DNA from: a virus
Virus record (IMG/VR): IMGVR_UViG_3300045988_126550
Location: 64,001-128,000 of that record
Strand: one strand, 5' to 3'
DNA: 64,000 nt
Below the pieces are notes generated by a model. That model was given only the letters and a program-made list of their open reading frames with translations, searched no databases and was not told where the DNA came from. This document shows, one piece after another, positions 48,691 to 64,000 of the stretch (position 1 is the first letter of the stretch; the number at the start of each line of letters is the position of its first letter). The position numbers and the translations under genes were made by a program.

Positions 48691-51600
48691 TCATCTTGTG
48701 AACCTTTTTAAACTATTGTTAACGCCCTTCATATAAGAATCTAGTTGAGCCTTAACTGCATCCTTAATATCAGGTATAGAATCCCTATCAGCATGTTCGA
48801 TATTGATCATATTGCCGAATGACATATTAAGCTCAATACTATTATTGATAATATAAGGAGCGCCAATCTTAGGTTTATTTCTGTCAAGAATATCTTTCGG
48901 ATCTAGAGTCCCAAGCTTCATAAGATTATCAGTAATATCACTTGGAATCACAGAACTGCCTTTACTTAGATATTGTAACCTACCATTCGTGTCTGCATGT
49001 AATACTAATTCTTCTAGCCCAAGTTCGTCAGTAATTGCAAATTGGTCGTTTGGAACTTTCTTAATACCTTTTGCATATCCCTCTATGTCGCTTAACTTGA
49101 TCCAGCCAGTATACTGTCCGTTTCTGCCAATTAACACTTCAGAGCCGCTAACTTGATAAACAGTAAATGTAGAACCAGGAACCCAAGATTGCATTCTAGT
49201 ACCATTGCCGCCATCTCTAGTAAAGTGAGTAGCAGACTTCTTAACAGTCACGCTAGAACCATTGGCCGGAGCCGCAGGTTTTTGTGGGGTGCTAGGTTGT
49301 TGTGGGGTAGATGGCGTTGGAGCAGTATACGTCGCACTAGATGTCTTGTTGGCATTTTGATTAGTAGCGTCAATTAAATGTCTTGCTGTCTCATCCGCCG
49401 CTGCTTGTAAATCAAGAAGTTGTTTCTTAATTGCTTCTAGTTGCGCAGTAAACGCACTTGTAGATGCATTTAATTGATCTTGATAAGTACCTATCGCAAT
49501 TACGCCTTGTTCCCAAGGATTTGTAATTGCTTCTGACAAATTAATGCCATATTCATCGGCAATTTCTTTTAATGTCCCTGCAACTACTTCTGTATTTCCA
49601 GTAATAGTCGCAAAGCTATCGGCGATTACTTGTTCGACGTTCTTTAAATATTCATCGAGAGCTTCCATCTCTTTTTCTTTTTCGTCTTGATAGTTCTCTG
49701 CTTGATCGTCCAACGCATCTTGTTGTTTCTCTATACTATGACTATAATATAGTTCGTCTAATTCTTCTTGTGCTGCAGCAAGTTCTGCTTCAAGCTTCTT
49801 TCTTCTGGCAATAGCACTTGCGGAATTATCCCCAGCTATTGCAGCAAGTTGCTTTTGAATATTTGCAATATTCTTTTGTTGCTCTTCTACCTGCTTAGAG
49901 AAATCATGAGCATCTTTAGAAAGTTGCAATTCCTCTTTCTTTTTATTTATAAGCTCATTATAAGCGTCAATTTCCTCTTGCATCGCATTTTTTGCAGCAT
50001 CAACACGAGTTTTATTAAGAGCAATAAGAGCGTCTTTTGCAGCCTCATATGACTTTATACTATCCCATTGTCCGTCTTTGAGTTCTTGTAGTTTTTCGTT
50101 ATACTCATCTGTACTATACTTGCCAGCGGCATATTCTTGATTAAGGTATTCAATTTGTTCTGCATATTGTTTTGCTCTATATTGAGCGCGTTCCATTTCT
50201 TGGGCAAGTAGACCCATTTTAGTAATGCCCTCATTAGTCCAATTGCCCATTTCATCGGCAATATCCTCATCATCGATTAAATCGCCTAAATTAGATATTT
50301 CATTGCCGACATTATCAATAGCTTTAATAAGACCATCAAAGTTATCCCAGTGTAACTGATTGATAGAATTTTGGAATCCTTCAATCTCTTTACGGCAGTC
50401 AATAATAGCCTTATCAACATCTTGAATTGCGGCGACCCCTTCATACCATTCCTCAGAGCCGATATCAATATTGCCAGCAGAAACCTGAGCATCGAATTCT
50501 TTTTGCATGTCATTGCGTTTCTTTTGAAGTTCATCGAGCTCTTTGATGCTATTCTTAATCATTTCTTCATACATTACTGCAGAAGTACGTTCGCCTTGCT
50601 CGTCTATCAGATCGACGTTCGCCTGAAGCAAATCGTTAAGAGTTGTAATCTTAGCGATAACCCTATCATACTCATCCGCAATAGTTTGCACTTTTTGTAA
50701 TGAGAGTGATGTAATTTCTTTCTTGACTTGTTGCTGTTGTGTTCTTACATCTGATGCTTTTTGTGCCCATTCACGATAGTTATTAATCGCCTCTACAACT
50801 TCTTGATTAGCTTCTCCTAAGAATTCTGTTAAAGCAACACCGCCATTTTTAGCAAGCTCTTGGTATTGCTGTGGCACTTTCTCTAAAAGTTGTGCGGCAT
50901 AATCCGCATAAAGCTTATAACCTTCTCCAAGTTCTGTCAATTTATACTTATTGACATTAATCATTTGATCTTGGATATCATTTTTAGCAGAAATACCTAC
51001 GGCATTTTCTAGTGCTGCGGACATATAATTTAAATCATCATCAATCTCCTCAAGCAAAACTGCGAACCAGTCGAACATTTCTTCAAAATCATTGGCAGCA
51101 TCAGAAAGATCATCACCCGCGTCAGATAAACTATCTGCCGCATCGTTCCAATCTGTCCAGAAATTATCATTTTTAGCACCACTATAATAAGTTGGTGTCG
51201 TATAATCCGGGACGATTGTTACATGTGCATTACCTTCAGAGTAGGCCTTGCCACGAGAATTGATATGCCCGTTCTTGAACAACTCTTCGGTTTGCTTGTG
51301 ATTAAAGATAATTGCATTCTTTGGCAAATCTACAAATTCTGCACCCTTATCTCCAACGGTATAATATTTTCCAGTTTTAGGGTCTACAACGGTTTCCCTT
51401 CCGAGCTCGCCCACTAAAGCGTCGTCTTCTGCTTGTGGCAATCCCCAATTGCCAGATGCATGAGCGGTGCCATCTGCATATATTGTCAAACGTCCGCTGG
51501 CACCAGGAGTATGAACTGTCTGCTCAGTACCACTACCAATAACTCGATAGTCAGTTGTAATTGTAAACGTTTTATCACTAATGCTTGTCGCATTAAGCTT

Positions 51601-54600
51601 ATCAAGTTTCGCTTGAACTGCACTTACATTTTCTCCTGTTGCTACAAGCTCAGAAGATGTAGATTCAATCTCTCCTTCTAGGTTTGAAATGGCTCCAGTA
51701 TCTCCAACATAATGGAGTAATTTCGCCGTCTTATCTGCGTCCTGACCAATACCTTCAAGAAGATTTTTAACGACAGCTCCATCAACTTCAAGCCCTTTGG
51801 TATCAAGTTGGAACAGTTCATCACTTGTCCATTTTCCATCATTTTGTTTTGCTTCGTCAATAAGCCCCCAGATATACTTGTCGACAGTATTGGAATCAAG
51901 CAATTGTGGGCCATTTTCTGTCTGTAAAATCGGAGTAAATGCTATGTCCTCTCCGTCGAATTCACCAACAGAACTTAATAGAGTGGAGTACGTTCCAGCC
52001 AAATCATCGGCCTTCATGCCCCAGCTGTCTATTGCATCGCCATACTTATCAAGTGATTCTTCGTCCCAATATAGTTCCTGACGATCATTAGTATCTACGT
52101 TCCCATATTTTGTTTGAGATAAATCTGTACCAATGTCATCTGCAAGAGATTTAGCATTAAGTACATCTGTTACATATTGATTAATAAGATTGTCAAGTTC
52201 TCTCATTCCGTCAGAAGTATCATCAATGGCGGACGCTACCTCTTTGCCAGTATAAGAACCGTCGCCCTGCAAGTCTTTTACAACGCCAGCAAGACCAACT
52301 GAACTAAAACCAGACGATTCAACGGCTTTGTCTCCGCCAAGATTAAACATTTCCATAATAGTATTAAGATAACCATCTTTATACTTGGAAAGTTCATCCT
52401 CAAATCCAGTCCAATCTTTTTCATCATACTCTCCGGGAACAGCACGAATAACCAAGTTGTACTTATCAGAATCAAGAAGATCTTGCGTTGACCCATTCGT
52501 GACAAGACCATCTATATAATCTGCAAGTGCATCAGATGTTAAAACATCCCCATTCTCAAGAACAGGAGTAATATCAATAGTATACTTATTCTTATCTCCA
52601 ATTGTTACAGTCTCTGCGGAAGTACTTGCATATATCTCTCCGTCAGAACCGATGAATGAATTATATCCTCCACCCATGGCAAGGTCATGTTCATACGATG
52701 GAGACAGATGTGGGCGTTTACGAAGATCTACATTACCGTTTACCAATTTTTCATATTGCGCACACATTTCTTCAGCATATTTAGCAAGCTTATTAAGTTT
52801 TAGCTTATCAAATATGTTGTTAATAACATTTGTCCCGCTTGCATATGCTTTGCCCCTACTATTAATGTAACCATTTTCAAGTAAAGATTTTGTTTGTTTA
52901 TGGTTAAATATAATATCGCCTTTTTTAACATCAGTAAACTCTGCACCATTTTCTCCAAGCATGTCCCAATGGTTTCCACGCACACGAAGTTCTGGGCCTA
53001 ATTCTCCAACTAAAGACGTATCAGTTGATTCAGCCCCCCAACTACCAGAAGCATGAGCCGTACCGTTAGCCATTGTAGAATTTAATTCATAACGGCTACG
53101 ACGCCCACCATGTTTCGTCACTGTCTGGCCTTCATTTACCTCCCGGTATGTAGTAGTGACAGTGACACCTGTTGGGACTCTGTCGATTGCATCAATCAAA
53201 TTATTAATTGATTTTACGGCAGCAGTACTATCAACACTTGGGTCTGGAAGTGCCTCAATAGCCTTCTTTGCCGCTTCTGCGGCAGTTTTTACTTCTTCAA
53301 TTTGCGCCTTTGCTTCTTCTTTATTTTCAACAAGAAGATTAATAACTCCTTTATCATTCAGCAAATCAACGTACTGTTGTAGTTTCTGACGCTCATCATC
53401 AGTTATCTCTACATCTGGCTTGATTTTATATTTACCATCTTCTCCAAGCTCTACAAGCTCACTATCATCTATATTAGCTATATTCGCTTTGACCGCAAGT
53501 TCGTTATTATTTGCTTTCCACGCAGCCATTTGAGAGTCTATATCATCTAGCGCAAGCTGAATTGATACCTCTGTTGGTTCTTCTAGATTGTATTTTTTCT
53601 TTAATGCCTCTCCGAGTTGTTCAGTTAAGCCTTTAACTTTTTTAGTTTGTGCATCTATTTCTTCTTGAGTATAGCCACTATTAGGTTGATTCATTTCATT
53701 CAACTTTTTCGTAGCTTGTTCAACTTCATCTTTTAAATTTGTGACTTCTTTCGTAACATTTTGATACTCTACGGCATTTTTCCTTGCATCTTCTGCACAA
53801 CCTTGTAGCTTACTATTAGCCTCCTGATATTTCTGTGCCCATTCTTCAACGCCAATTTCATTATTTGCTAAAGCAACATCCAGCTCTGATAAGTTTTTAG
53901 TTGCCATAAAAATATTGCCTTCGAGCCCTAAATCAAGTTGGTCAAAGACAGAACCAAAATCGCCGTTCAACCATTCTGCATCATAAGCATCAATTTCTGT
54001 GAACATTGCAAAAGCCATTTCCTTTGTAATATTCATCTTATCACAGAAATCATCTAATGTTTTAATATCACTTGAGAGCTCAAAGTGTTGCCAATCACCT
54101 TTATTTGTAAATACTCCTTTTTCTTGAGCACTTTCAATGAACGCCTGAACATTATCTAAGGTCATCTCTGCACTTTCAAGAGTACCAGCATCGCTAAATT
54201 TTAACGTAAAATATTTACTGAAATCCGAATTCTTTAAATAATTGGCAATAGCAGCGACTTTTTCTTCTACCGTATCAAAACCAGAATAAACATCTTCTGG
54301 AATCATACCTGCCACAGCAGCCTTAAAAGATTCTGTCCCAAGTTTTGCTGATTGCAATCCTTCAATAAGCCCAGAAATCATATCTTCTGCTTTACTGCCA
54401 TAATCCTTTGCTTCATCAGCAGATTTTGCGTCTTCATATTTTTGATATGCATCCGCAGCTCCAAGCAACTTCTGTTCAAGAAGGCTATACTTTGCGATTG
54501 TTCTTTCTACTGCTCCCATTTCTTTATAAAGAGCATTAATTTCTTTTGCGTTAGCTTGCGCGAGTTCGCCATTCGCTCCAGTTAATTGCTTAATTTTCTT

Positions 54601-57192
54601 ATACAGCTCATAATACTTTAATCTAGCTTGAGACCTTTCAGTTCTTGCATTTTGAGCAGCTTCTTGTCTCTTCTTTGTAATCAGCTTGTTAAGCAGTGAC
54701 GCATTTTTAACCACGTATCCATTTGTTGTGTCAATTGCATCTGCATATTCTTTTTCATCACCAATGAGTGTTTTTAATGCTTCGCCCTGTTCGTCAGTAA
54801 GTTTGATTTTATCATAAACTACTTCGTTTTGAACAGATTGTGCACTAGTAACTTTATCGATTTCATCAGCATAATTAGAAAAAGTACTACCAACTGGATC
54901 GACTTTATTAAGTTCAGCGTGCGCGGCGGCAGAACCTAAAGAATTAATTTGATCCACAGCATCTTGCGTACTAAGCCCAATTTTATTTAACTCGTTCCTA
55001 AATTCGCTATAATCTGAACCATTTAACGAGTCTGCTGTAAGTTCTCCAGTCTCCGCCAAAGAATATAATTTCTTTTTAACCTCTGGATATTTTTCTAATA
55101 GAGCATCAAACTGTTCGGTATAATATTCACCGGGGTTAATTGTTTTATCTATATCAAGTGCCATTTGCTTAAGCTTATTTGCGAAATCATCATCTACATT
55201 TTCACCATAATTATCTAGATAATCATATAGCTCTGTTCCATATGTAGATAATGTTTCTTTAAGATTTTGCATTGATGATTCAATTGACTTCTTTTTAGAA
55301 TCTAGGGCAGATTTTTCGTCCTCGCTCATTGCACTAGTATCTGTATTAATAAGCTCATTCCATTCTTGCCTTAACTCATTATATTTTTCAATACCCTTTT
55401 GAATATAGCCTTCTTTGTCTATACTACCATCAGAAATATATTTTAAATCTCCATTCAGCTCATCAGATATTTGTGTCTCAACTCTTAATAGCTCCGCCAC
55501 TGCCTCATCGCTTAATTCTCCCCATGTCGATACATCAGCAAGCATATTATACAACTTTTCAGAATACGGTTTAATTGCGTTCCTTAAATTGTCATTAATA
55601 ATCTGATTATTTTTTGCATTTTCTATTTCGGATTTAGCGATTGTGGCGTTACCATATCTTTCGTCATCTTTATTGGTTTTAACTTCTTCTATGCTTAAGT
55701 TCTTAATATTAAAATCTTTTTTATAATCTTCTTTTGTCTCTTTCTGTAGCTCCTTTTGTTTAGAATCCTTACTTTCGTTTAGCAGTCTTAATCTTCTTTC
55801 CAATTCCTCATTGGTTTGTTTTAAAGTTTCTAGTTCTTCTTTTTCTACAAAAGATAGATTATGTTTGCCCTCTAACTCTTCAATTCTATTTTTAGTTGTC
55901 TCAAGTTCAGAATTTAGGCTTTCAATTTCATTATTTAGATCTTGGATTTCATTCTTTAATTTCTCTGATGCTGGAGTCATATTAGATATCCAAGTAATCA
56001 GAGATATAACTAAAGTAATAGCCATCAAAATCCATCCAACCGGATTAGACGCCATTAAAGATTTCAATGATGCTGCAACACCATGAATAGATGTAGAAAG
56101 TCCTTGGTTTGCAGCGGTTAAACCAAATGCAGCTATAATTTCTGCGCCATGAGCGGCAGCTAATGTCTCCGCTGCTACTGCTCCTTGGACTTTTGCCAAT
56201 GTCAATTCTGTTTCTCCCTGGGCTAAAAGCCAGTTGATGGATTCAGCAGAAAGTTTTACGGTACCCTCAGCTGCCATAGCTGCAGCTTGCGCAGCAGTGA
56301 CAGTGGTTTGTTCAGTTTTTGCAGTCGTGACTTGCGCCTCTGATACTGCTTGCTGTATATTCACTTTATCTACTCCATTTTTGGCCATTGCTTCTTCTAT
56401 TTGTGCCTTTGTTAAACCAGCAGACGCAAGAGCTGCTGCTTGTTGTTTTTCGGTTAAATCACTAACTGCGGCAGCATACGCACTAATATTTTGTGTGTTA
56501 AATTCAGTAGCAGATATTTTACCAGCTTTTCCAAGCCCATTTAATGATTGAATTGCCTTAATTTTCTCCAATGCCTGTCCATAATTAGATACATTAGCAG
56601 AAATTTCTTTAAACATAGTCACTGGGTTAATCTTTTTAGAAATTAATAAATATGAAACGACTCCTGCTAATACTGATTTGAATAGTCCAAATGAGTCTAC
56701 AGCTTTTACAACTGCGGTTCCTAAATTAACGAAGAATTTAATCCAACTACTGTCGAGTGCATCAGACCACATTGTCTGAACTGCATTTTTAAATAGAGTG
56801 ATTCTTCCCTGAATACTATTAAGTTGCTTTTCATTTTCCGCCATTGCAGAACCTTCAGCATCCATAGCGTCTTGATATGCACCTTCAAGGTCTTCAATAT
56901 TGGTAAGCATTGCAGCCATAGCATTTGAACGGTTTTTACCAGCGAGCATTTCAAGTAATGCCGCTTGGTCGATATCACTCATATCTCCCCAGACTTGAGC
57001 AATTTCTTTTATAATATCATATGTTGCCTTATAGTCGCCGGTTTCAGTTAAAATATCTACACCAGTTAAAGCTTTAACCTTAGATTGAAGCTTGCTGACA
57101 CTTTCTACTACATTATCAGTTTCTTCGCCTAGTGATTCCAATTCCTCTACACTTGTACCTCTAATACGTAGTGAGATGGTACGTAATGCACT
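48691..57192 (-). CDS. tape measure protein, exon 2 (2833 codons)
   Basis: Begins SALRTISLRIRGTSVEELESLG..., continuing the TP901-type tape measure core. Has TM segments, long coiled coils and a C-terminal SH3-like segment. Confidence 0.75.
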   Translation of the reverse strand, partial: SALRTISLRIRGTSVEELESLGEETDNVVESVSKLQSKVKALTGVDILTETGDYKATYDIIKEIAQVWGDMSDIDQAALLEMLAGKNRSNAMAAMLTNIEDLEGAYQDAMDAEGSAMAENEKQLNSIQGRITLFKNAVQTMWSDALDSSWIKFFVNLGTAVVKAVDSFGLFKSVLAGVVSYLLISKKINPVTMFKEISANVSNYGQALEKIKAIQSLNGLGKAGKISATEFNTQNISAYAAAVSDLTEKQQAAALASAGLTKAQIEEAMAKNGVDKVNIQQAVSEAQVTTAKTEQTTVTAAQAAAMAAEGTVKLSAESINWLLAQGETELTLAKVQGAVAAETLAAAHGAEIIAAFGLTAANQGLSTSIHGVAASLKSLMASNPVGWILMAITLVISLITWISNMTPASEKLKNEIQDLNNEIESLNSELETTKNRIEELEGKHNLSFVEKEELETLKQTNEELERRLRLLNESKDSKQKELQKETKEDYKKDFNIKNLSIEEVKTNKDDERYGNATIAKSEIENAKNNQIINDNLRNAIKPYSEKLYNMLADVSTWGELSDEAVAELLRVETQISDELNGDLKYISDGSIDKEGYIQKGIEKYNELRQEWNELINTDTSAMSEDEKSALDSKKKSIESSMQNLKETLSTYGTELYDYLDNYGENVDDDFANKLKQMALDIDKTINPGEYYTEQFDALLEKYPEVKKKLYSLAETGELTADSLNGSDYSEFRNELNKIGLSTQDAVDQINSLGSAAAHAELNKVDPVGSTFSNYADEIDKVTSAQSVQNEVVYDKIKLTDEQGEALKTLIGDEKEYADAIDTTNGYVVKNASLLNKLITKKRQEAAQNARTERSQARLKYYELYKKIKQLTGANGELAQANAKEINALYKEMGAVERTIAKYSLLEQKLLGAADAYQKYEDAKSADEAKDYGSKAEDMISGLIEGLQSAKLGTESFKAAVAGMIPEDVYSGFDTVEEKVAAIANYLKNSDFSKYFTLKFSDAGTLESAEMTLDNVQAFIESAQEKGVFTNKGDWQHFELSSDIKTLDDFCDKMNITKEMAFAMFTEIDAYDAEWLNGDFGSVFDQLDLGLEGNIFMATKNLSELDVALANNEIGVEEWAQKYQEANSKLQGCAEDARKNAVEYQNVTKEVTNLKDEVEQATKKLNEMNQPNSGYTQEEIDAQTKKVKGLTEQLGEALKKKYNLEEPTEVSIQLALDDIDSQMAAWKANNNELAVKANIANIDDSELVELGEDGKYKIKPDVEITDDERQKLQQYVDLLNDKGVINLLVENKEEAKAQIEEVKTAAEAAKKAIEALPDPSVDSTAAVKSINNLIDAIDRVPTGVTVTTTYREVNEGQTVTKHGGRRSRYELNSTMANGTAHASGSWGAESTDTSLVGELGPELRVRGNHWDMLGENGAEFTDVKKGDIIFNHKQTKSLLENGYINSRGKAYASGTNVINNIFDKLKLNKLAKYAEEMCAQYEKLVNGNVDLRKRPHLSPSYEHDLAMGGGYNSFIGSDGEIYASTSAETVTIGDKNKYTIDITPVLENGDVLTSDALADYIDGLVTNGSTQDLLDSDKYNLVIRAVPGEYDEKDWTGFEDELSKYKDGYLNTIMEMFNLGGDKAVESSGFSSVGLAGVVKDLQGDGSYTGKEVASAIDDTSDGMRELDNLINQYVTDVLNAKSLADDIGTDLSQTKYGNVDTNDRQELYWDEESLDKYGDAIDSWGMKADDLAGTYSTLLSSVGEFDGEDIAFTPILQTENGPQLLDSNTVDKYIWGLIDEAKQNDGKWTSDELFQLDTKGLEVDGAVVKNLLEGIGQDADKTAKLLHYVGDTGAISNLEGEIESTSSELVATGENVSAVQAKLDKLNATSISDKTFTITTDYRVIGSGTEQTVHTPGASGRLTIYADGTAHASGNWGLPQAEDDALVGELGRETVVDPKTGKYYTVGDKGAEFVDLPKNAIIFNHKQTEELFKNGHINSRGKAYSEGNAHVTIVPDYTTPTYYSGAKNDNFWTDWNDAADSLSDAGDDLSDAANDFEEMFDWFAVLLEEIDDDLNYMSAALENAVGISAKNDIQDQMINVNKYKLTELGEGYKLYADYAAQLLEKVPQQYQELAKNGGVALTEFLGEANQEVVEAINNYREWAQKASDVRTQQQQVKKEITSLSLQKVQTIADEYDRVIAKITTLNDLLQANVDLIDEQGERTSAVMYEEMIKNSIKELDELQKKRNDMQKEFDAQVSAGNIDIGSEEWYEGVAAIQDVDKAIIDCRKEIEGFQNSINQLHWDNFDGLIKAIDNVGNEISNLGDLIDDEDIADEMGNWTNEGITKMGLLAQEMERAQYRAKQYAEQIEYLNQEYAAGKYSTDEYNEKLQELKDGQWDSIKSYEAAKDALIALNKTRVDAAKNAMQEEIDAYNELINKKKEELQLSKDAHDFSKQVEEQQKNIANIQKQLAAIAGDNSASAIARRKKLEAELAAAQEELDELYYSHSIEKQQDALDDQAENYQDEKEKEMEALDEYLKNVEQVIADSFATITGNTEVVAGTLKEIADEYGINLSEAITNPWEQGVIAIGTYQDQLNASTSAFTAQLEAIKKQLLDLQAAADETARHLIDATNQNANKTSSATYTAPTPSTPQQPSTPQKPAAPANGSSVTVKKSATHFTRDGGNGTRMQSWVPGSTFTVYQVSGSEVLIGRNGQYTGWIKLSDIEGYAKGIKKVPNDQFAITDELGLEELVLHADTNGRLQYLSKGSSVIPSDITDNLMKLGTLDPKDILDRNKPKIGAPYIINNSIELNMSFGNMINIEHADRDSIPDIKDAVKAQLDSYMKGVNNSLKRFTR

Positions 57193-57473
57193 CAATCTGT
57201 TACTTTCCACTTATTAAGTGTACTGACCATATTTCTATGGCGGATAGTCATTTCTGGCTATCTCTCGTGTTTTATCATTAGGTCATATCACGAGTTCGGA
57301 CTGTATCTTCACATATAGTGAGTGGCGAAACCTAATATGTTACCATATTAGGTATTACAGTCTCTGAGGATTTTTATTAAAATTACTTTGTAATTTTAAC
57401 AAATCTTTCCTAAGTCTCATCTACCTCTAGATTTTAACTTATATAGCCACTTTTAACGTCGGCAATGTTATTT
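57193..57473 (-). ncRNA. ORF-less group I (IA-like) self-splicing intron in the tape measure gene
   Basis: P1 is exon GUCGGU (57479-57474, terminal U-G) paired with GCCGAC (57463-57458). P3 is GUGGC/GCCAC. P7 is GACUGUA (57362-57356) / UACAGUC (57305-57299). A P7.1-like 8-bp hairpin lies at 57352-57331, P8 at 57321-57309, P9 is CUCGUG/CACGAG, and a GAAA-capped hairpin lies at 57240-57227. The terminal G is at 57193. P10 is CAUU/AGUG. Confidence 0.75.
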
Positions 57474-60400
57474 ACCGACAGAATTAGGATCCTGAAGGAC
57501 TTTGTTTGCAGCGGCTACTAACGCTACTGATTGTTCAAGGCTGTTGCCAGCAGCCATTAGTGAACTTGCAGAATCTTGTAGTGCTGTTGCTATGCCGTCA
57601 CTTGACACGGCAAAATTGTTGCCAATTTCATTTAACACGTCAACTACGTGCATGCTATCTTGAGCCGCGTATCCAAAAGCTTGAATTGTAGAGATAAGCG
57701 CCTCCGACGCTTTATCGGCATCGGTAAATTCGGAAACATTCAATAGAACAGCGGTACTCTTAGCAAGGTCTCCCGCTTCTTCAATAGAATAACCAAGACG
57801 CGCCCAGCTTGCTGCCATATTAGTCAAATCAGACGTAGTTGCACCAACATTTGCTCCAGTCTGAGCCATTGTCTTTAAGAATCTCGCATATGTTTCATCC
57901 GTTTCATCAGTTACCTTTTTAAGCTCTGTTAATGCGGAATCTATATCTTGTACATATTGAACGCCTTGTTTTATTGCACCCCATATTCTGTAAATGCTAC
58001 CAAACGAAGCAAGATAAGTTCCTACTTCCTTAAACTTTCCTTTAATGCCATTAATAAAACTCTCAAATCCAGTTTCAACTGGCTTGATTTTTCCAGGTAT
58101 AATTTCAACAGCATTTCCTAATTCCCCCATGACCATAGTCATTTCTTGCATTTCATGTTTCCCGGTTCTTACTTCATAAGTCATGGTGCGAGTTTCTGCA
58201 TTAAAGCCCTTAAAGTTTGCTCCCTCAACAGAACTTACATAGCTTAACATTGCATTTTTAACAGCATCAATATCTTTTGGATTAACATTAGCAAAGAATT
58301 TTTGGACATCCAAATCTGCTTGTTGCGAATTAATTTTACGTTGCGCTTCGTCCGCGCCTAACAATGCCTTTTCTGCCTCGGTCGCTCTATCTGCCAAAAG
58401 CTTCAATGCGGCTTGCTCTCCGTCAGAATCAGATAATAGTTTACCGCTCTGAGCGAGTTCATCCTTTTTTTTCTTCAAAGCGTCTAAAGCATTAAAATAT
58501 TCTTTGACAACAGTTACGTCATTAACATTAACGCTTTGATCGTTATATGCACTTAATGCTTGCTTAACATATTCTTCTCTACCAAGAACTTTTGTGGCGC
58601 TATTATATCCATATGCGTCTTTAGATTTCCCAATAATACCATTTCCAAGCTTGACCAATTCTTCTTGCGCAGCTTTTAACTTGTCAATGTTTTCATCAAG
58701 ATTATCTGCAGCACTATTCCTAACAGCCTCTTGAGCCGTCCCATATGCCTTCATTGCTTCCTGATAAGCTTGTATTTCTTCGCTATCCTTATCAAAGAAC
58801 CCTTCTTTTTGTCCATCAACAATAGCCTGATTAATTTTATGAATAGAAGCAGTAACATTATCACAAGAATCTTGAAGCTTTTCAGATTGAATATAAGCAG
58901 CGTTAAATGCGTCACTCCAACTCATAATGACACTTGTTATTTTGCCATCAGCATCTACCATATCAAAAGATATCTTATCTTTAACGAAATCATATTGGCT
59001 AAAATCATATTGGCTATTTTTAGATGTAGCATATTGTTTAGCGTAAGCTTCCATAATAGCTTGGCGATCTGTAAATAGCGTATTTTCTGAAATCTTATTA
59101 TCTCCAGATATGATTCTGCCTTCTTTATCAAGTGCCTGATATGCGCTTTGTATCTTCGCATTTTTGGTTAATTCTGTTTGTAGCTCTTTGACTTTTGACA
59201 CAGCACTGTCTAGTTTCTGAAGGTCAGCATCGGTAATGACAGTTCCATTTTCTCCTTTTGCGCGAATATCCGCCGCTATCTGTTGTAGCTCTTTAAATTT
59301 GTTCGCATATTCTTGGACTTCGGTATTATCTGTGCCAAGAATTTTTTGAATATCAGCATAATTCTTATCGTTCCAACTAAGTGTCTTACCAGCATCTTTA
59401 ATTGATCTTTTTGTCCACGCGGAAGTAGAGTCTGGATTAAGGGCATCCATCTGAGCTTTTGTCAGAGTAGATTTAACCTCTTTAGTAGTTTCTTCTATTT
59501 CTTTTGCGCCAATGCCAAGAGCCTCTTTTAGCTTAGACATTTCGGTGGCAATTTCATCAGCAGACAAACCTTTATATTCATCATAGAATCCTCGCTCATA
59601 AGAAGTAAGCTTTTTACTTTCTAATGTCGCAAATAATGTTCGCATAGCTTGAGTCAATTGATCAGGTAGTGCGCTGTATTCTGTTGTAATACCACCAAGT
59701 GATTTATCGTATTCCCGATTTATAATTTGAGAAATAAAATCTCCGCCAAACTCTTTGGACAATAACCCTCTAATAACTCCTACATAATCTTGCTTAGAGA
59801 CATTGGTTCTACCATTAAATACACGGTTATAATAAGATTGAAAGTTAGTAATAACATTACTTAATTTACTATATTCTTCATCTGTTATAGAATATTGATT
59901 ACCAACATCCTGCCCAGTGGAGATATCGGATATTGACAACATGCCACCAGCTTCTTGTACAACTCTTTGAAGATAGCCATTAAGTATTCTTGCCATTTCT
60001 CCAGAATTCTGAGCAGCAACATCCTCGCCATTCACAGTAGAGAACATAGCAGTAATCACATCGTTGATTATTGGATATTTTTCTGCAATATCTAAAGCAG
60101 TACCGAAAGAATCTTTTCCTAAATCTATCGACATCATTTGACGTCCATAAATCATATTATATTTTTTTAAGTTATTTTCGTCCGCAAAATTTGCTAATTG
60201 TTCTATATCAGAAAGAGAGAACATTAAATTATTTGTGCCTTTTTTATAGGCATGAGAGTGCGTCATAGAATCTATTTCTTGTTCTATCTTATCAAATGTA
60301 ACTTCGAATGCTTTCCCTACAACAAACTCAATTGCTTTCCCATCTTTTTCCGTGAAGCCATATTCTACATTTTGTTTTGAAACGTCTTTGCCATTGTCAA

Positions 60401-63400
60401 TTGCATTAGTTAATGCAAGAATTGCAGTTTTAAATTGCTGGAACGTTTTTACGTTATTAAGCTCTGCGACATCAGTTGCTCTATTTTCTTCATAGCCTAA
60501 AAGTTGTCTGGATTTAGCCGTATTAGTGCTTGCCTGTTTAAGTGCAGCAAGCTTATCATTGGCAAGCTTTTCTAATGCTGCAAGACGAGCCTCTTGCTCT
60601 TTCTTAGACATTTCAGAAATATCTTTTAGTCCAGCCGCCGCAGATTCAGACCCAGTTGTTATACTTTCGATGCCTTTTTCTATGGCTTTTTTAGCGACCT
60701 CCGATGTCTTCTTAACAACTTGTTCTGCGCCAGTCTTGACAGTTTCAGTTATTGGAGTAGAATCAACTTCGCCAATTAATATATCAAGATTTTGAATGTC
60801 AGAATCTGATCCGCCATATAACTTAGCATATGCTCTATTACGGGCTTCTGTTATATTGGCAATTTCTTCTTTTGATATACCTCCATAAGCTTTCTGCTGT
60901 TCTATAGATAGCTCTGCATCTCGGACTTCTCTTTCCAAAGCCTCTTTAATCCCAAGGAAATATGCATTTTTCTTTCTATACATATCTGCTAGATTTACGC
61001 GGAATCCTTTGCCATCAGTAAATACCTTGTCTTCCGCAGCTTCTCCTTCTAAGCGAGTAACATCCTCAGAAATTGTGTTTATATATGCAGAGATACTTTT
61101 GCCTAACTTTTTATTTACAGCATCATATATTCTCTTACGGATTATTTTTTCTTTTTCTTCTACTTGATTAAAAACGGTACTAACCTGCTTGCCAAATGCC
61201 GTTTCATTGCCCTCGCCGGTGCCTTTACTCATCGTCATTCCGCTTAAGACTGATTGCAAAGTTGGCTTAAGCTGTTTATCAACAGAGCCTTCTCCAAAGT
61301 CTTCAACTAATAATTTGGATAAATTACCATAATAAACACTAAAGAATTTTTTAGCCTTTTCATTGATAATAGTTTTAATCTCTTCGCCATTATTTAATGA
61401 TGCTCTTCGAACATCGGAAATATTACTCACACGAGAGATTTCGCTAGTTATCTCATCAGTAGACAAAGATTCATTCTTTAAGATTTCTTTTATTGCGACC
61501 TTTTCAGCATCATTAATTTCTTTAAGCTTAAACTCTATCGCCTCTCGAATTTCCTGCTCCATAGTAGCTTGAGCAATATCCCACGCTTCTCTATGTAGAA
61601 TGACGCCGTTGTCCCCATATTTGGACTTGACAAATTGAGTGGCGGCACCCTGATACATATTATTTACAACTTCAGAAATATGATTAGCAATTGCATTTTG
61701 AAGCTCATTAACCTTTTCTCCAGCCTTTGCATATAGTTGTTCCCTATAACTTCTAAATTCATCTGTAGATGTGTAATGTGAAACAAACGTCTTTTGTAAA
61801 GCATCCGCCGCAGATGATTTATTACCATATATAGTAGTAAATGCACCTTGCTCCTTATTGAATGTCAACTTTTGTGCTTTCTGAACGTCTTTCGTATAAT
61901 CTCCAAGCTTGCCAATTTGTTCATTGTTTCTGATAATAACTTGCTGAAGTTCTTGAATTTTTTCAAGAGCATTAAACTTTTTCTGTTCTGGAGACAAACT
62001 TTCATCAAAAATATTAGAAGAGTTAATACCATTAATTTCTTTAAGCTTATTATATAACTCTGTTACTTCTGTATTTATAACATTTAAAGCTTGTGTTTTT
62101 TCACTAAGAGTTACTGGCGATGCCCCAGATTCTTCAAGCTTATTAATTTCGCGTACAAGTTCAAGCTCTTCGCTCTTTTTTTGATTATATTCAACTTGCA
62201 ATTGAGCTACTTGTTTGTTTCTTTCTGCAATTTTTAATTCCTGTTCTGCTTTTTGAACTTGATTGTCTAAAGATTCTCTTTCTAACTCAATAGACTTTTT
62301 TTGTTCTACCAATGGCATCAACGAGGATCTTTGCGATGCAACAGCATCTTCATATTTATTAATAACGCTATCGCCAACTTCGTATTGTTGTAAAGGAAGT
62401 TTTGCCTTTTTAATATACGTACCATATTGCTGAATAATCGAAGAAATATAATTATTGATAACAGAATTTAAATTGCTAATATCAGCGTTAATTTCTTTTT
62501 TTGATCTTGCATTATCAACAGATTCTTTCAAAGCATCTATTTTGCGCTGTAAGATTGCCTGAATTTCAGTACTCCCTTTATCATTCGCTTCTTTTAATCT
62601 TTGCTTATAATCCTTTAATTCAGCCTTCGCATTATCATAATTACCTTTTTCATTAAATAGTTCTGCTCTTTGCTGTAATAAAGTTTGTAGTTCTTTTGGG
62701 AAAATTTCTAAATTTGATAAATCAAAGTTCTTGCTATTTTTAAATTGTTGAAGGGCATCAATCTGTTGTTTTAAAGAATCACGTACATTTTTTGAATTAT
62801 AAAATGACTGTTTATCCATTCCAGCGAACAAATCTTTCAAATCTGCATCGTTTAACCCTAAATCATTGCTAATATTCGTAATAGAATCAAATAGACCGTT
62901 TAAATTTTCTTTTGCTGTTTGAATTTGAACTACAACTTTATCATATTCTGCAGTTCCAGCCTGTTTACCTTTAAGACTTTTCTCAAGAGAGGACAAATCC
63001 TGCTGTCTTTGTTTGTATTCTTCAATAGTAGTTTGTAATTGTTCAAAAAGATTATCATCAAGTTTCTGTTTTTGTTCTGTAACAGATTGCTGAATTTGTT
63101 TATGAATTTCTTGCAAAGCAGTCTCTTGTTCTTTAATAATAGAAGAAGTGTCTTCCCCTTTTTGAATTTTAGTATATACAAGAAGTCTACTCTTGCTTTG
63201 TTCTAACTCATTTTGTAGACTTGCCAAATTTCCTTGAAGATCAGACAAATATTCCCTACTTGTGCCTCTCCCTGCTTTTGAAATTTTTGATTCAATCTCT
63301 TTAATTTCTTCATTAATCTCTTTTTGCTCTTGTTGTTTAGCAGAAATGGCTTTGCTTAAAAGATTTGGAGATTCTTTGTATTTTTCAGAATCTTTAGAAA

Positions 63401-64000
63401 TATCTTTAGCTATAGCCAATCTTGATTCGGCTTGCTTTCTTGCCACAAGCAATTTGCGATAATTGTCGGGAGCATCTTTATTACTCTGACGCTTAATCAT
63501 CAAATCATAAATATTTTTTTGTTGTTTATAATCCGATTTAAGCGATTCCATTTCTGGAGACACAGAGTAAGAAGAAGGTTTAACGCTATCAAGCACGTTT
63601 TGCGCTGAAGCAACTCCATCTCTAGCAGCCTGCAGCTTTTGATTTATTTCTTCTTCTTGTTTTGCAAGCTGAGCTAATTTTTCATCTCTTGCTTTTTTAG
63701 CTTCAGCTAATTGTTCAGAGTTTTTTTGAATACTTTCTTCAGCAACAGAAAGTCTTTCTTCCCAGTTAATAGAATACTCATCATTTACTTTGATTTGAGA
63801 CACATCAAATGGAGCGGGTCTTTGATTCTCATCCGAATAAAATTGAGTTTTTGCACCCAATTTTGTCTTGTTGTTCAAACGAGCACTAATCATTCTTAAC
63901 GCTTTACGTTTTGATATAGCAGAATCAGATCTGTCTATTACCGTAGGTGTATCAATTCCTTCGTAATAAATATCTGCATTTAGATTTTTTAGTATCGAAG
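57474..64000 (-). CDS. tape measure protein, exon 1; first ATG at 63893 but the frame stays open to the window edge
   Basis: Very long coiled coil, then the TP901-type core (IDSALTELKKVTDETDETY...LQDPNSVG). No stop codon between 63894 and 64000 in this frame. Confidence 0.75.

Follow-up and report, generated by a model that had tools for sequence, protein, structure and literature searches.

Two giant open reading frames lie one after the other on the minus strand of a 64,000-nt stretch of viral DNA (positions 64,001 to 128,000 of the IMG/VR record IMGVR_UViG_3300045988_126550; hereafter the window), raising the question of whether they are two genes or the two exons of one. The upstream frame (57468..63893, 2141 aa) ends in ...AANKVLQDPNSVGK followed by a stop codon (...VLQDPNSVGK-stop). 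The downstream frame (48691..57210) comprises 2839 aa when counted from its first possible start, a GTG, and contains ...ESNRLSALRTISLRIRGTS.... From the upstream stop codon to this first listed start there are 257 nt. The coordinates given in the initial annotation, which had placed a group I intron in the gap, are confirmed. Our analysis arrives at the same reading: positions 57473..57193 on the minus strand are very probably an ORF-less, IA-like, phage-type group I intron inserted between two codons of a tape measure core. The two frames would then be the exons (2140 and 2833 codons) of one tape measure gene of 4973 codons. The exon junction, the full set of group I pairings, their compensatory conservation and the membership of a family of introns that occupy this tape-measure site in many phages can be demonstrated from the sequence and its comparison with relatives; splicing is what we infer from them.

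The domain content of the two frames is that of a single protein. Against the product of exon 1 alone, the Pfam profile PF10145 (phage minor tail / tape measure core) aligns with residues 2008-2130 over profile positions 3-125 (or 3-126) of 201, the core domain beginning near residue 2008 and being cut off C-terminally at the exon end. Against the spliced protein, the same profile runs uninterrupted from position 3 to position 201 of 201 (E = 4.4e-25; 89.2 bits versus a cut-off of 33.2). The NCBIfam profile TIGR01760 (tape_meas_TP901) likewise matches the spliced protein in a single stretch that spans the junction, covering profile positions 4-299 of 349 with 119.4 bits (cut-off 28.8). These two matches bear out the earlier proposal that joining the frames as VG^SALRT (here and below, a caret marks the junction) restores a TP901-type core. 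When the joined protein was compared with isolated phages by tblastn, 123 of the 165 matching records had a single place that accounted for 80% or more of the query, and the best 30 rows, that of Geobacillus virus E3 excepted, were single pieces spanning the junction. Among the matches are the tape measure proteins of Brevibacillus phage Sundance, SPbeta yomI, and others. Judged by homology, the host gene is a TP901-family phage tail tape measure gene, and the insertion point of the intron, VG^xAL(R/K)T, is the most conserved motif of the TP901-type core. When the locus and 24 kb of the window were queried by megablast against isolated phages, no match appeared; the phage has no close relative in culture. 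Nor did GTDB genomes, scanned with a protein pattern of the tape-measure core, yield a relative.

The precise junction could be read from alleles that lack the intron. Scanning the joined 403-aa core against IMG/VR viral contigs gave 13 related loci, and tblastn of the core against those loci identified six at which the site is continuous: four with 59–75% identity to the core (L002, L003, L007 and L008) and two with 98% amino acid identity in exon 2 (L004 and L005). In the intron-less alleles, which read ...NKVLQDPNSVGSALRTISLRIRGTS, S follows directly upon G. Their protein is ...NKVLQDP(N/S)SVG^SALRTISLRIRGTS, and in the window the downstream frame from position 57192 likewise gives ...SALRTISLRIRGTS. 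Their DNA is ...AAY AAA GTN NTN CAR GAY CCN ... GTA GGN^AGT/TCA GCN YTN CGN ACN..., and in L004 and L005 the site is ...AGCGTAGGA^AGTGCC. Because these alleles match base for base, the junction lies between U57474 and A57192, with the omega-G at 57193, and the spliced register is identical to theirs. An alignment with intron-less homologues had been proposed as the means of fixing the junction, and the six alleles serve this purpose to the single base. The sole other cut that yields the same product, one base rightward, would leave an intron that ends in A, not G. Coordinates of the exons and of the predicted intron with its elements are collected in Table 1.

Table 1. Predicted exons, intron and RNA elements of the tape measure locus, in window coordinates
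Feature	Position	Strand	Description	Basis
Predicted exon 1, tape measure	57474..63893	-	2140 codons; ends CCU AAU UCU GUC GGU (PNSVG)	ORF list and translation
Predicted group I intron	57193..57473	-	281 nt, phase 0 (between codons), no ORF; begins AAAUAA, ends GAUUG	
P1 exon strand GUCGGU	57474..57479	-	exon 1 ends with U57474, which forms a U-G wobble at the 5' splice site	
UAA stop in the exon 1 frame	57468..57470	-	two codons into the intron, in the P1 loop; translation ends ...SVGK-stop	
P10 intron strand CAUU	57464..57467	-	pairs with exon 2 AGUG, 57192-57189	
Internal guide sequence GCCGAC (P1 intron strand)	57458..57463	-	wobble partner G57463	sequence
P3 5' strand GUGGC	57446..57450	-	partner GCCAC 57322-57326	
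P4 (UAAGU/ACUUA) and P5 (UCUA/UAGA)	57411..57441	-	with A-rich joining segments	sequence and fold
P6 (GGA/UCC) and P6a	57368..57410	-	P6a is a 10-bp hairpin (UUAAAAUUAC-AAA-GUAAUUUUAA)	sequence
P7 5' strand GACUGU	57357..57362	-	partner ACAGUC 57299-57304; pseudoknot with P3; CCGAAC next	
P7.1	57330..57353	-	9-bp hairpin with GGUAAC loop, between P7 and P3'	sequence and fold
P8 (UCAC/GUGA)	57309..57321	-	short	sequence and fold
3' peripheral domain P9, P9.1, P9.2, P9.3	57208..57294	-		sequence and fold
3' tail GAAAGUAACAGAUUG	57193..57207	-	ends in omega-G 57193; conserved in family members regardless of the following exon	
Predicted exon 2, tape measure	48691..57192	-	2833 codons and stop; starts AGU GCA UUA CGU (SALRT)	translation

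All of the elements by which the initial annotation had recognized a group I RNA, namely P1, P10, P3, P7 with the adjoining CCGAAC, P8, P9 and the terminal G57193, were found in the sequence. At the 5' splice site, each of the six pairs of P1 is changed on both sides in the wider family alignment. The exon bases at the site are GTCGGT in all intron-carrying alleles and GTAGGA, GTAGGC or GTAGGT, encoding the same Val-Gly, in the intron-less ones; GTCGGT occurs only with the intron present, as expected if P1 constrains the exon. The early stop is kept at the same place in relatives, as AAA UGA in the same-site intron of contig L011 and as AAA UAA in that of L015, a sister phage. In another same-site intron, that of L029, P10 is formed by GGCGUU with the exon 2 sequence AACGCC, which indicates that P10 changes together with the exon.

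In the core, all five pairs of P3 are changed on both sides within the family, and the helix was also recovered by RNAalifold on an independent alignment. Comparison with L011 reveals three double changes in P4 and one in P5, and a G-C pair of P6 in the window is C-G in L011. The P5 pair 57429/57422 is U-A in the window and C-G in L015, a compensatory change despite 97.5% identity between the two introns outside an insert in the latter. P7 is preceded by a J8/7-like GAAGAUA, and its sequence agrees with the Rfam consensus UgAAGAUAuAGUC. The extra hairpin said to lie between P7 and P3' is indeed present as P7.1, all nine pairs of which are changed on both sides in the family, with four double changes relative to L011. 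An extra element in this position is typical of subgroup IA, and Michel and Westhof reportedly made such elements between P7 and P3', P7.1/P7.2, a criterion of this subgroup in 1990. Here, one covarying hairpin was found at 57353-57330, with no second hairpin and no P2, and the assignment to subgroup IA is accordingly tentative, the intron being called IA-like. P8 is the weakest helix of the family alignment, with 78.8% paired. Toward the 3' end, P9 (CUCGUG/CACGAG with a 19-nt loop) is 100% paired, five of its six pairs covarying, and P9.1, P9.2 and P9.3 are 94–96% paired, with all pairs covarying. P9.1 and P9.2 each carry a GAAA loop, so that two of the three hairpins peripheral to P9 are of the kind of which one had been claimed.

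Folded unaided, the intron has a minimum free energy of −70.4 kcal/mol (z = −6.24 relative to 200 dinucleotide shuffles), and the resulting structure reproduces P4-P6a, P7, P7.1, P8 and P9-P9.3. The Rfam model Intron_gpI (RF00028), which had been suggested as a check by Infernal, gave a divided answer. In a focused 571-nt search it matches 57280-57483(-) from end to end (model positions 1-253) with E = 1.8e-5 for a search of that size, and it is the sole Rfam match better than E = 1 on the intron stretch; its score of 29 bits, however, is below the gathering score of 50, and the match is therefore suggestive rather than passing. This threshold is an operational yardstick, and by its structure the element qualifies as a group I intron. 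Scans of the whole window with RF00028, in gathering and in E-value mode, did not report the intron. Of other tape-measure introns, the two that neighbor the window's site in L015 score 60.1 bits (insertion at 141/142, in residues of the 403-aa query) and 42.1 bits (198/199), and that of Geobacillus virus E3 scores 48.7 bits (E = 2.6e-11).

For the comparison with relatives, a covariance model, R1, was built from the introns of the window, L011 and L015, the last without its ORF, with P7 left out of the model. Its 73 matches come from 58 sources, and the window contributes exactly one (57190-57482, 359 bits). In the resulting alignment of 52 distinct rows, which is biased towards the structure because it was fitted to a model made from the window intron, 93.1% of the cells are standard pairs versus 35–43% after a shift of the 3' partners by 1-3 columns; double changes occur in 66 of 69 pairs, and none of 500 shuffles reaches any observed measure. 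P7, although absent from R1, keeps its pairing through the variants GACUG/CAGUC, GACUA/UAGUC, GACCA/UGGUC and GAGUA/UACUC. From a plain MAFFT alignment of eight members, RNAalifold recovered P3, P4, P5, P7.1, P9, P9.1, P9.2 and P9.3, with 34 of 54 predicted pairs compensatory. The shifted controls and this independent fold lessen the concern about model fitting, but do not abolish it. The orthologous intron at the same site of L011, 79.9% identical to that of the window, differs from it at 14 of 65 helix pairs, of which 12 are double compensatory changes, one is a change to G-U and one is an alignment gap. Of 53 positions conserved to 85% or more in 30 other family members, the window agrees at 50, from which we conclude that the core is intact. 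What had been assigned to group I from a single sequence thus has a fold backed by covariation in a large family.

The family is widespread and favors one kind of site. A 17-mer of its J8/7-P7' segment, GAAGATACAGTCCGAAC, occurs in 44 viral-contig stretches, most of which share the 3' architecture. Many members precede exons starting (T/N/S)-A-L-K-T in tape measure proteins that are only about 30–40% identical to that of the window, which ties the intron lineage to the codons of VG^xALKT. Introns at the window's own site are present in the independent contigs L011/L037, L015, L022, L029 and L020/L041. A metagenome scan with a looser pattern gave five loci, three of which are probably L020, L029 and L041, and a scan with the window-specific 5' pattern gave no match. 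A blastn search of isolated phages with the intron gave no match at E ≤ 1e-3; relaxing the limit to E ≤ 10 added nothing but 30-nt matches to the core. The 17-mer is also found in 84 genome contigs; these belong to many phyla, so the motif is uninformative about the host. The best R1 scores among those contigs come from a Paludibacteraceae MAG and a Eubacteriales MAG.

These features suggest the following course of events. The transcribed intron would fold, and, as in established group I chemistry, a free guanosine would attack after U57474. The freed 3'-OH of exon 1 would then attack after G57193, with exon 2 positioned by P10 and the ligation guided by P1 and P10 together. From the ligated mRNA, one continuous tape measure protein of 4973 aa could be translated, carrying the junction peptide VLQDPNSVGSALR. 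On unspliced RNA, ribosomes would be expected to halt at the UAA in the P1 loop, before they reach the catalytic core. A protective role of such an early intron stop is an interpretation that derives from the introns of phage T4.

The interruption might alternatively be a decayed relic that has ceased to splice, leaving the phage with two proteins that correspond to the N- and C-terminal parts of the tape measure. Public records do list split tape measure genes as two coding sequences (gp42/gp43 of Geobacillus virus E3 and several plasmids), but in the window the break lands midway through one conserved domain, and a start codon is missing from exon 2 at the junction. Upstream, the one available start, GTG 57210, falls inside the intron, within one of its helices. 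A relic would also fit the RF00028 score, which is under the gathering score, and the missing endonuclease ORF, by which one stage of the intron life cycle is lost or was never present. The conserved core, however, is intact at the 50 of 53 positions mentioned above, and the differences between orthologues are overwhelmingly compensatory, which argues for selection on the fold. We therefore regard decay as very unlikely.

It is also conceivable that splicing occurs, but at G57208, a position in frame and ending in G that the initial annotation had kept as a possible second 3' site. The protein would then retain five extra codons (ESNRL), and these are absent from every intron-less allele, which excludes the site. 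G57208 is moreover the last, closing base of helix P9.3; the 15 nt beyond it, GAAAGUAACAGAUUG, are kept across related introns whatever exon comes next; and P10 pairs with AGUG at 57192-57189 and varies with exon 2 in L029. To this acceptor we accord next to no probability. Equally, there is hardly any prospect that the element is no group I intron but a group II intron, an intein, an IStron, a case of translational bypassing or an assembly error. An intein is ruled out by the in-frame stops, and the element is only 281 nt long, without a reverse transcriptase or transposase ORF; below E = 1, RF00028 is its sole Rfam match. Against an assembly artefact stand the homologous insertions that the independent contigs listed above carry at this site. 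The preferred reading thus remains a group I intron that would be spliced out between U57474 and A57192.

As the initial annotation had noted, this intron contains no homing endonuclease ORF; the longest ORF on its sense strand in the window is 21 aa. Without an endonuclease gene, it is unable to home by itself. The copy at the same site in L015 is 97.5% identical outside its insert, a 350-aa ORF in the P6a loop. This ORF matches phrog_1271 at 6e-17. It may resemble Vsr-like EDxHD homing endonucleases, but Pfam Vsr reaches only a weak E = 0.014, and a PDB sequence search with it gave no significant match. The tape-measure core of L015 has three introns, inserted at residues 141/142 and 198/199 and then, 33 nt further on, at the window's site. 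The intron at 141/142, about 0.2 kb upstream of the window's site in coding terms, contains a 469-aa endonuclease ORF, and that at 198/199 is ORF-less. Both the 350-aa and the 469-aa ORF have matches among PHROG families whose annotation is HNH, homing or intron-encoded endonuclease. The window and L015 are 97.5% identical over 7.4 kb downstream from the 3' part of the intron, whereas their upstream exons are 83–84% identical. The window intron is either a derivative of the endonuclease-carrying copy of L015 or the ORF-free precursor of that copy, and it has either been inherited passively or been moved by recombination or by an endonuclease acting in trans.

Related phages carry other combinations of insertions. 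L004 and L005 have the insertion at 198/199 and an empty site at 209/210, the site of the window; L009, L012 and L013 have insertions at 141/142 and 198/199; and L011 has one near residue 105 (R1 38 bits) in addition to that at the window's site. In seven more distant contigs (L021, L025, L030, L031, L036, L040 and L048), a segment of about 2 kb in one tape measure gene holds three or four R1 matches. On the 403-aa query there are at least five insertion sites, at residues ~105, 141/142, 161, 198/199, 209/210 and ~290, of which the window occupies one. It is about an even chance that these observations reflect a wider pattern, in which the ~300-codon TP901-type core generally serves as a hot spot of group I intron insertion among uncultured phages of gut or rumen type. 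Up to three or four introns per gene, from several lineages, would then accumulate there, one lineage being dedicated to VG^xALKT across proteins of ~30% identity, and the intron/endonuclease site would be a boundary of exchange.

Published work already describes introns of tape measure genes, some of them ORF-less and at several sites (PMC2504315, PMC10448857). In prophages of the Bacillus cereus group, the tape measure group I introns TMP-IVS1, IVS2, IVS3a and IVS3b occupy three sites (IVS1-3) and belong to subgroups IA1 and IA2. In some copies the endonuclease gene is incomplete or missing, the guide sequences are adapted to the sites, and conserved gene sequence is targeted (Tourasse and Kolsto 2008, PMC2504315). 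Like the intron of the window, these are small phage-type group I introns in the same kind of host gene, with several sites per gene; in contrast, the phage of the window is uncultured and AT-rich, and its tape measure protein has 4973 aa versus more than 1200 aa in the B. cereus group. No B. cereus-group genome was matched by the 17-mer core motif, and tblastn did not retrieve pBWB404. In Vibrio phage ICP1, an intron encoding an HNH-type endonuclease interrupts the tape measure gene; its splicing was demonstrated by RNA-seq and RT-PCR, and the authors state that tape measure genes are often interrupted (Barth et al. 2023, PMC10448857). The two cases are alike in having an intervening sequence in the tape measure gene, but the intron of ICP1 carries an endonuclease gene and that of the window no ORF, and splicing was observed in ICP1 and is deduced from sequence in the window.

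Closest to the window are the same-site contigs L015 (IMGVR_UViG_3300045988_109720), L011/L037 (..._136255), L022, L029 and L020/L041, which have the site, the guide GCCGAC and the architecture in common with it; L015 differs from it in the 350-aa endonuclease-like ORF and in having two further introns. For these contigs, we found no annotation or publication. Among isolates, Geobacillus virus E3 (NC_029073) has a tape measure core that is likewise split by a group I intron, between gp42 and gp43, which are annotated only as N- and C-terminal tape measure proteins. The insertion in E3 is at residue 161/162 of the 403-aa query, about 48 codons upstream of the window's site, and the intron, having no R1 match, is of another lineage. 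Plasmid p1 of C. botulinum (L143) has a tape measure gene interrupted at the corresponding position (ESG^TSLKT), in this case by ~370 nt; the insertion has neither an R1 nor an Rfam match and is not counted in the family.

The intron of the window is a further example of the tape-measure group I introns already described; it opens no new category and settles no long-standing question. For annotation, it means that two giant "genes" are to be read as one tape measure gene of 4973 codons. The intron escapes gene callers and, at default thresholds, Rfam, and as a consequence split tape measure proteins are routinely mis-annotated as two, as seen in records of Geobacillus virus E3, C. botulinum and C. 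difficile. The locus and its relatives also form a natural series on closely related backgrounds, comprising an empty site, an ORF-less intron and an intron with an endonuclease ORF, which is suited to studying the life cycle of introns and homing endonucleases as well as recombination boundaries in phage tail genes. If the tape-measure core is a hot spot as outlined above, the homing of introns would power the shuffling of tape-measure halves as modules, and the ORF-less copy of the window could shield its site from the endonuclease of the sister phage.

The spliced tape measure protein encoded at window 48691-63893 (-) comprises 4973 aa, which is very long for a protein of its type. Its Pfam match covers only a core of about 200 aa, which starts near residue 2008 and extends across the exon junction; no Pfam match was found in the roughly 2000 residues before the core, nor in the roughly 2700 after it. 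Similarity to the SPbeta-type and Sundance relatives is likewise confined to this core.

In a sister phage, L015 (IMGVR_UViG_3300045988_109720), the tape-measure core is interrupted by three group I introns (about 9544-13365, - strand). Two of these contain endonuclease-like ORFs, 469 and 350 aa long, and the second and third introns are separated by a mini-exon of 33 nt. In a more distant group of phage contigs (L021, L025, L030, L031, L036, L040, and L048), a stretch of ~2 kb in a single tape measure gene holds three or four matches to R1, the covariance model built from the introns of the window and two related loci (for example, L025 8356-10259), with short exons between them.

Split tape measure genes also occur in Geobacillus virus E3 and in phage-plasmids of cultured clostridia (see table for the latter). 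In Geobacillus virus E3 (NC_029073), a group I intron lies between two tape measure CDS (L001 3426-3727) and is matched by the Rfam group I intron model RF00028 with 48.7 bits (E = 2.6e-11); the record annotates gp42 and gp43 as the N-terminal and C-terminal tape measure proteins, respectively, and leaves the intron unannotated. The gap in the Clostridium botulinum plasmid (L143) is located at the equivalent of the window intron site (ESG|TSLKT) and contains AGAUAUAGUC; it was matched by neither R1 nor Rfam. The gap in the C. difficile plasmid (L145) contains two tandem copies of a motif that, read by eye, resembles the L015 intron at 198|199 (residue numbering of the 403-aa core query). A RAGATH-18 RNA (61 bits, L143 1072-1133), with a TnpB-family gene immediately upstream of it, adjoins the C. 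botulinum tape measure gene.

Tape measure gaps in clostridial plasmids and tRNA-like genes in the window
Feature	Location	Strand	Remark
Tape measure gap	L143 3125-3495		C. botulinum strain Stockholm plasmid p1
Tape measure gap	L145 2915-3489		C. difficile CD161 plasmid
tRNA-like gene 1	window 9888-10011	+	Rfam tRNA match, 49.8 bits
tRNA-like gene 2	window 10020-10136	+	Rfam tRNA match, 41.9 bits

Elsewhere in the window, two tRNA-like genes lie side by side. Inserts roughly 45-58 nt long sit in their anticodon-loop/variable region and have the motif AACAGCAA(G/A)UUU in common. The inserts are too short to be group I introns. ARAGORN called five ordinary tRNAs at window 12557-14288 and made no call for either tRNA-like gene.

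At the 3' end of the window intron, RNAalifold pairs 57299-57303 with 57193-57197 (-), that is, the P7 3' strand CAGUC with the last five intron bases, GAUUG, which are similar to the P7 5' strand GACUG. Since both segments are almost invariant among the eight aligned sequences, an alternative pairing involving the terminal omega-G is neither backed nor contradicted.

Comparison of window 50000-57975 with L015 revealed a stepwise change in DNA identity, from 83-84% in the upstream exon to 90% in the 5' part of the intron and 97.5% over 7.4 kb from its 3' part downstream. The jump suggests that the intron/endonuclease site marks a recombination boundary.
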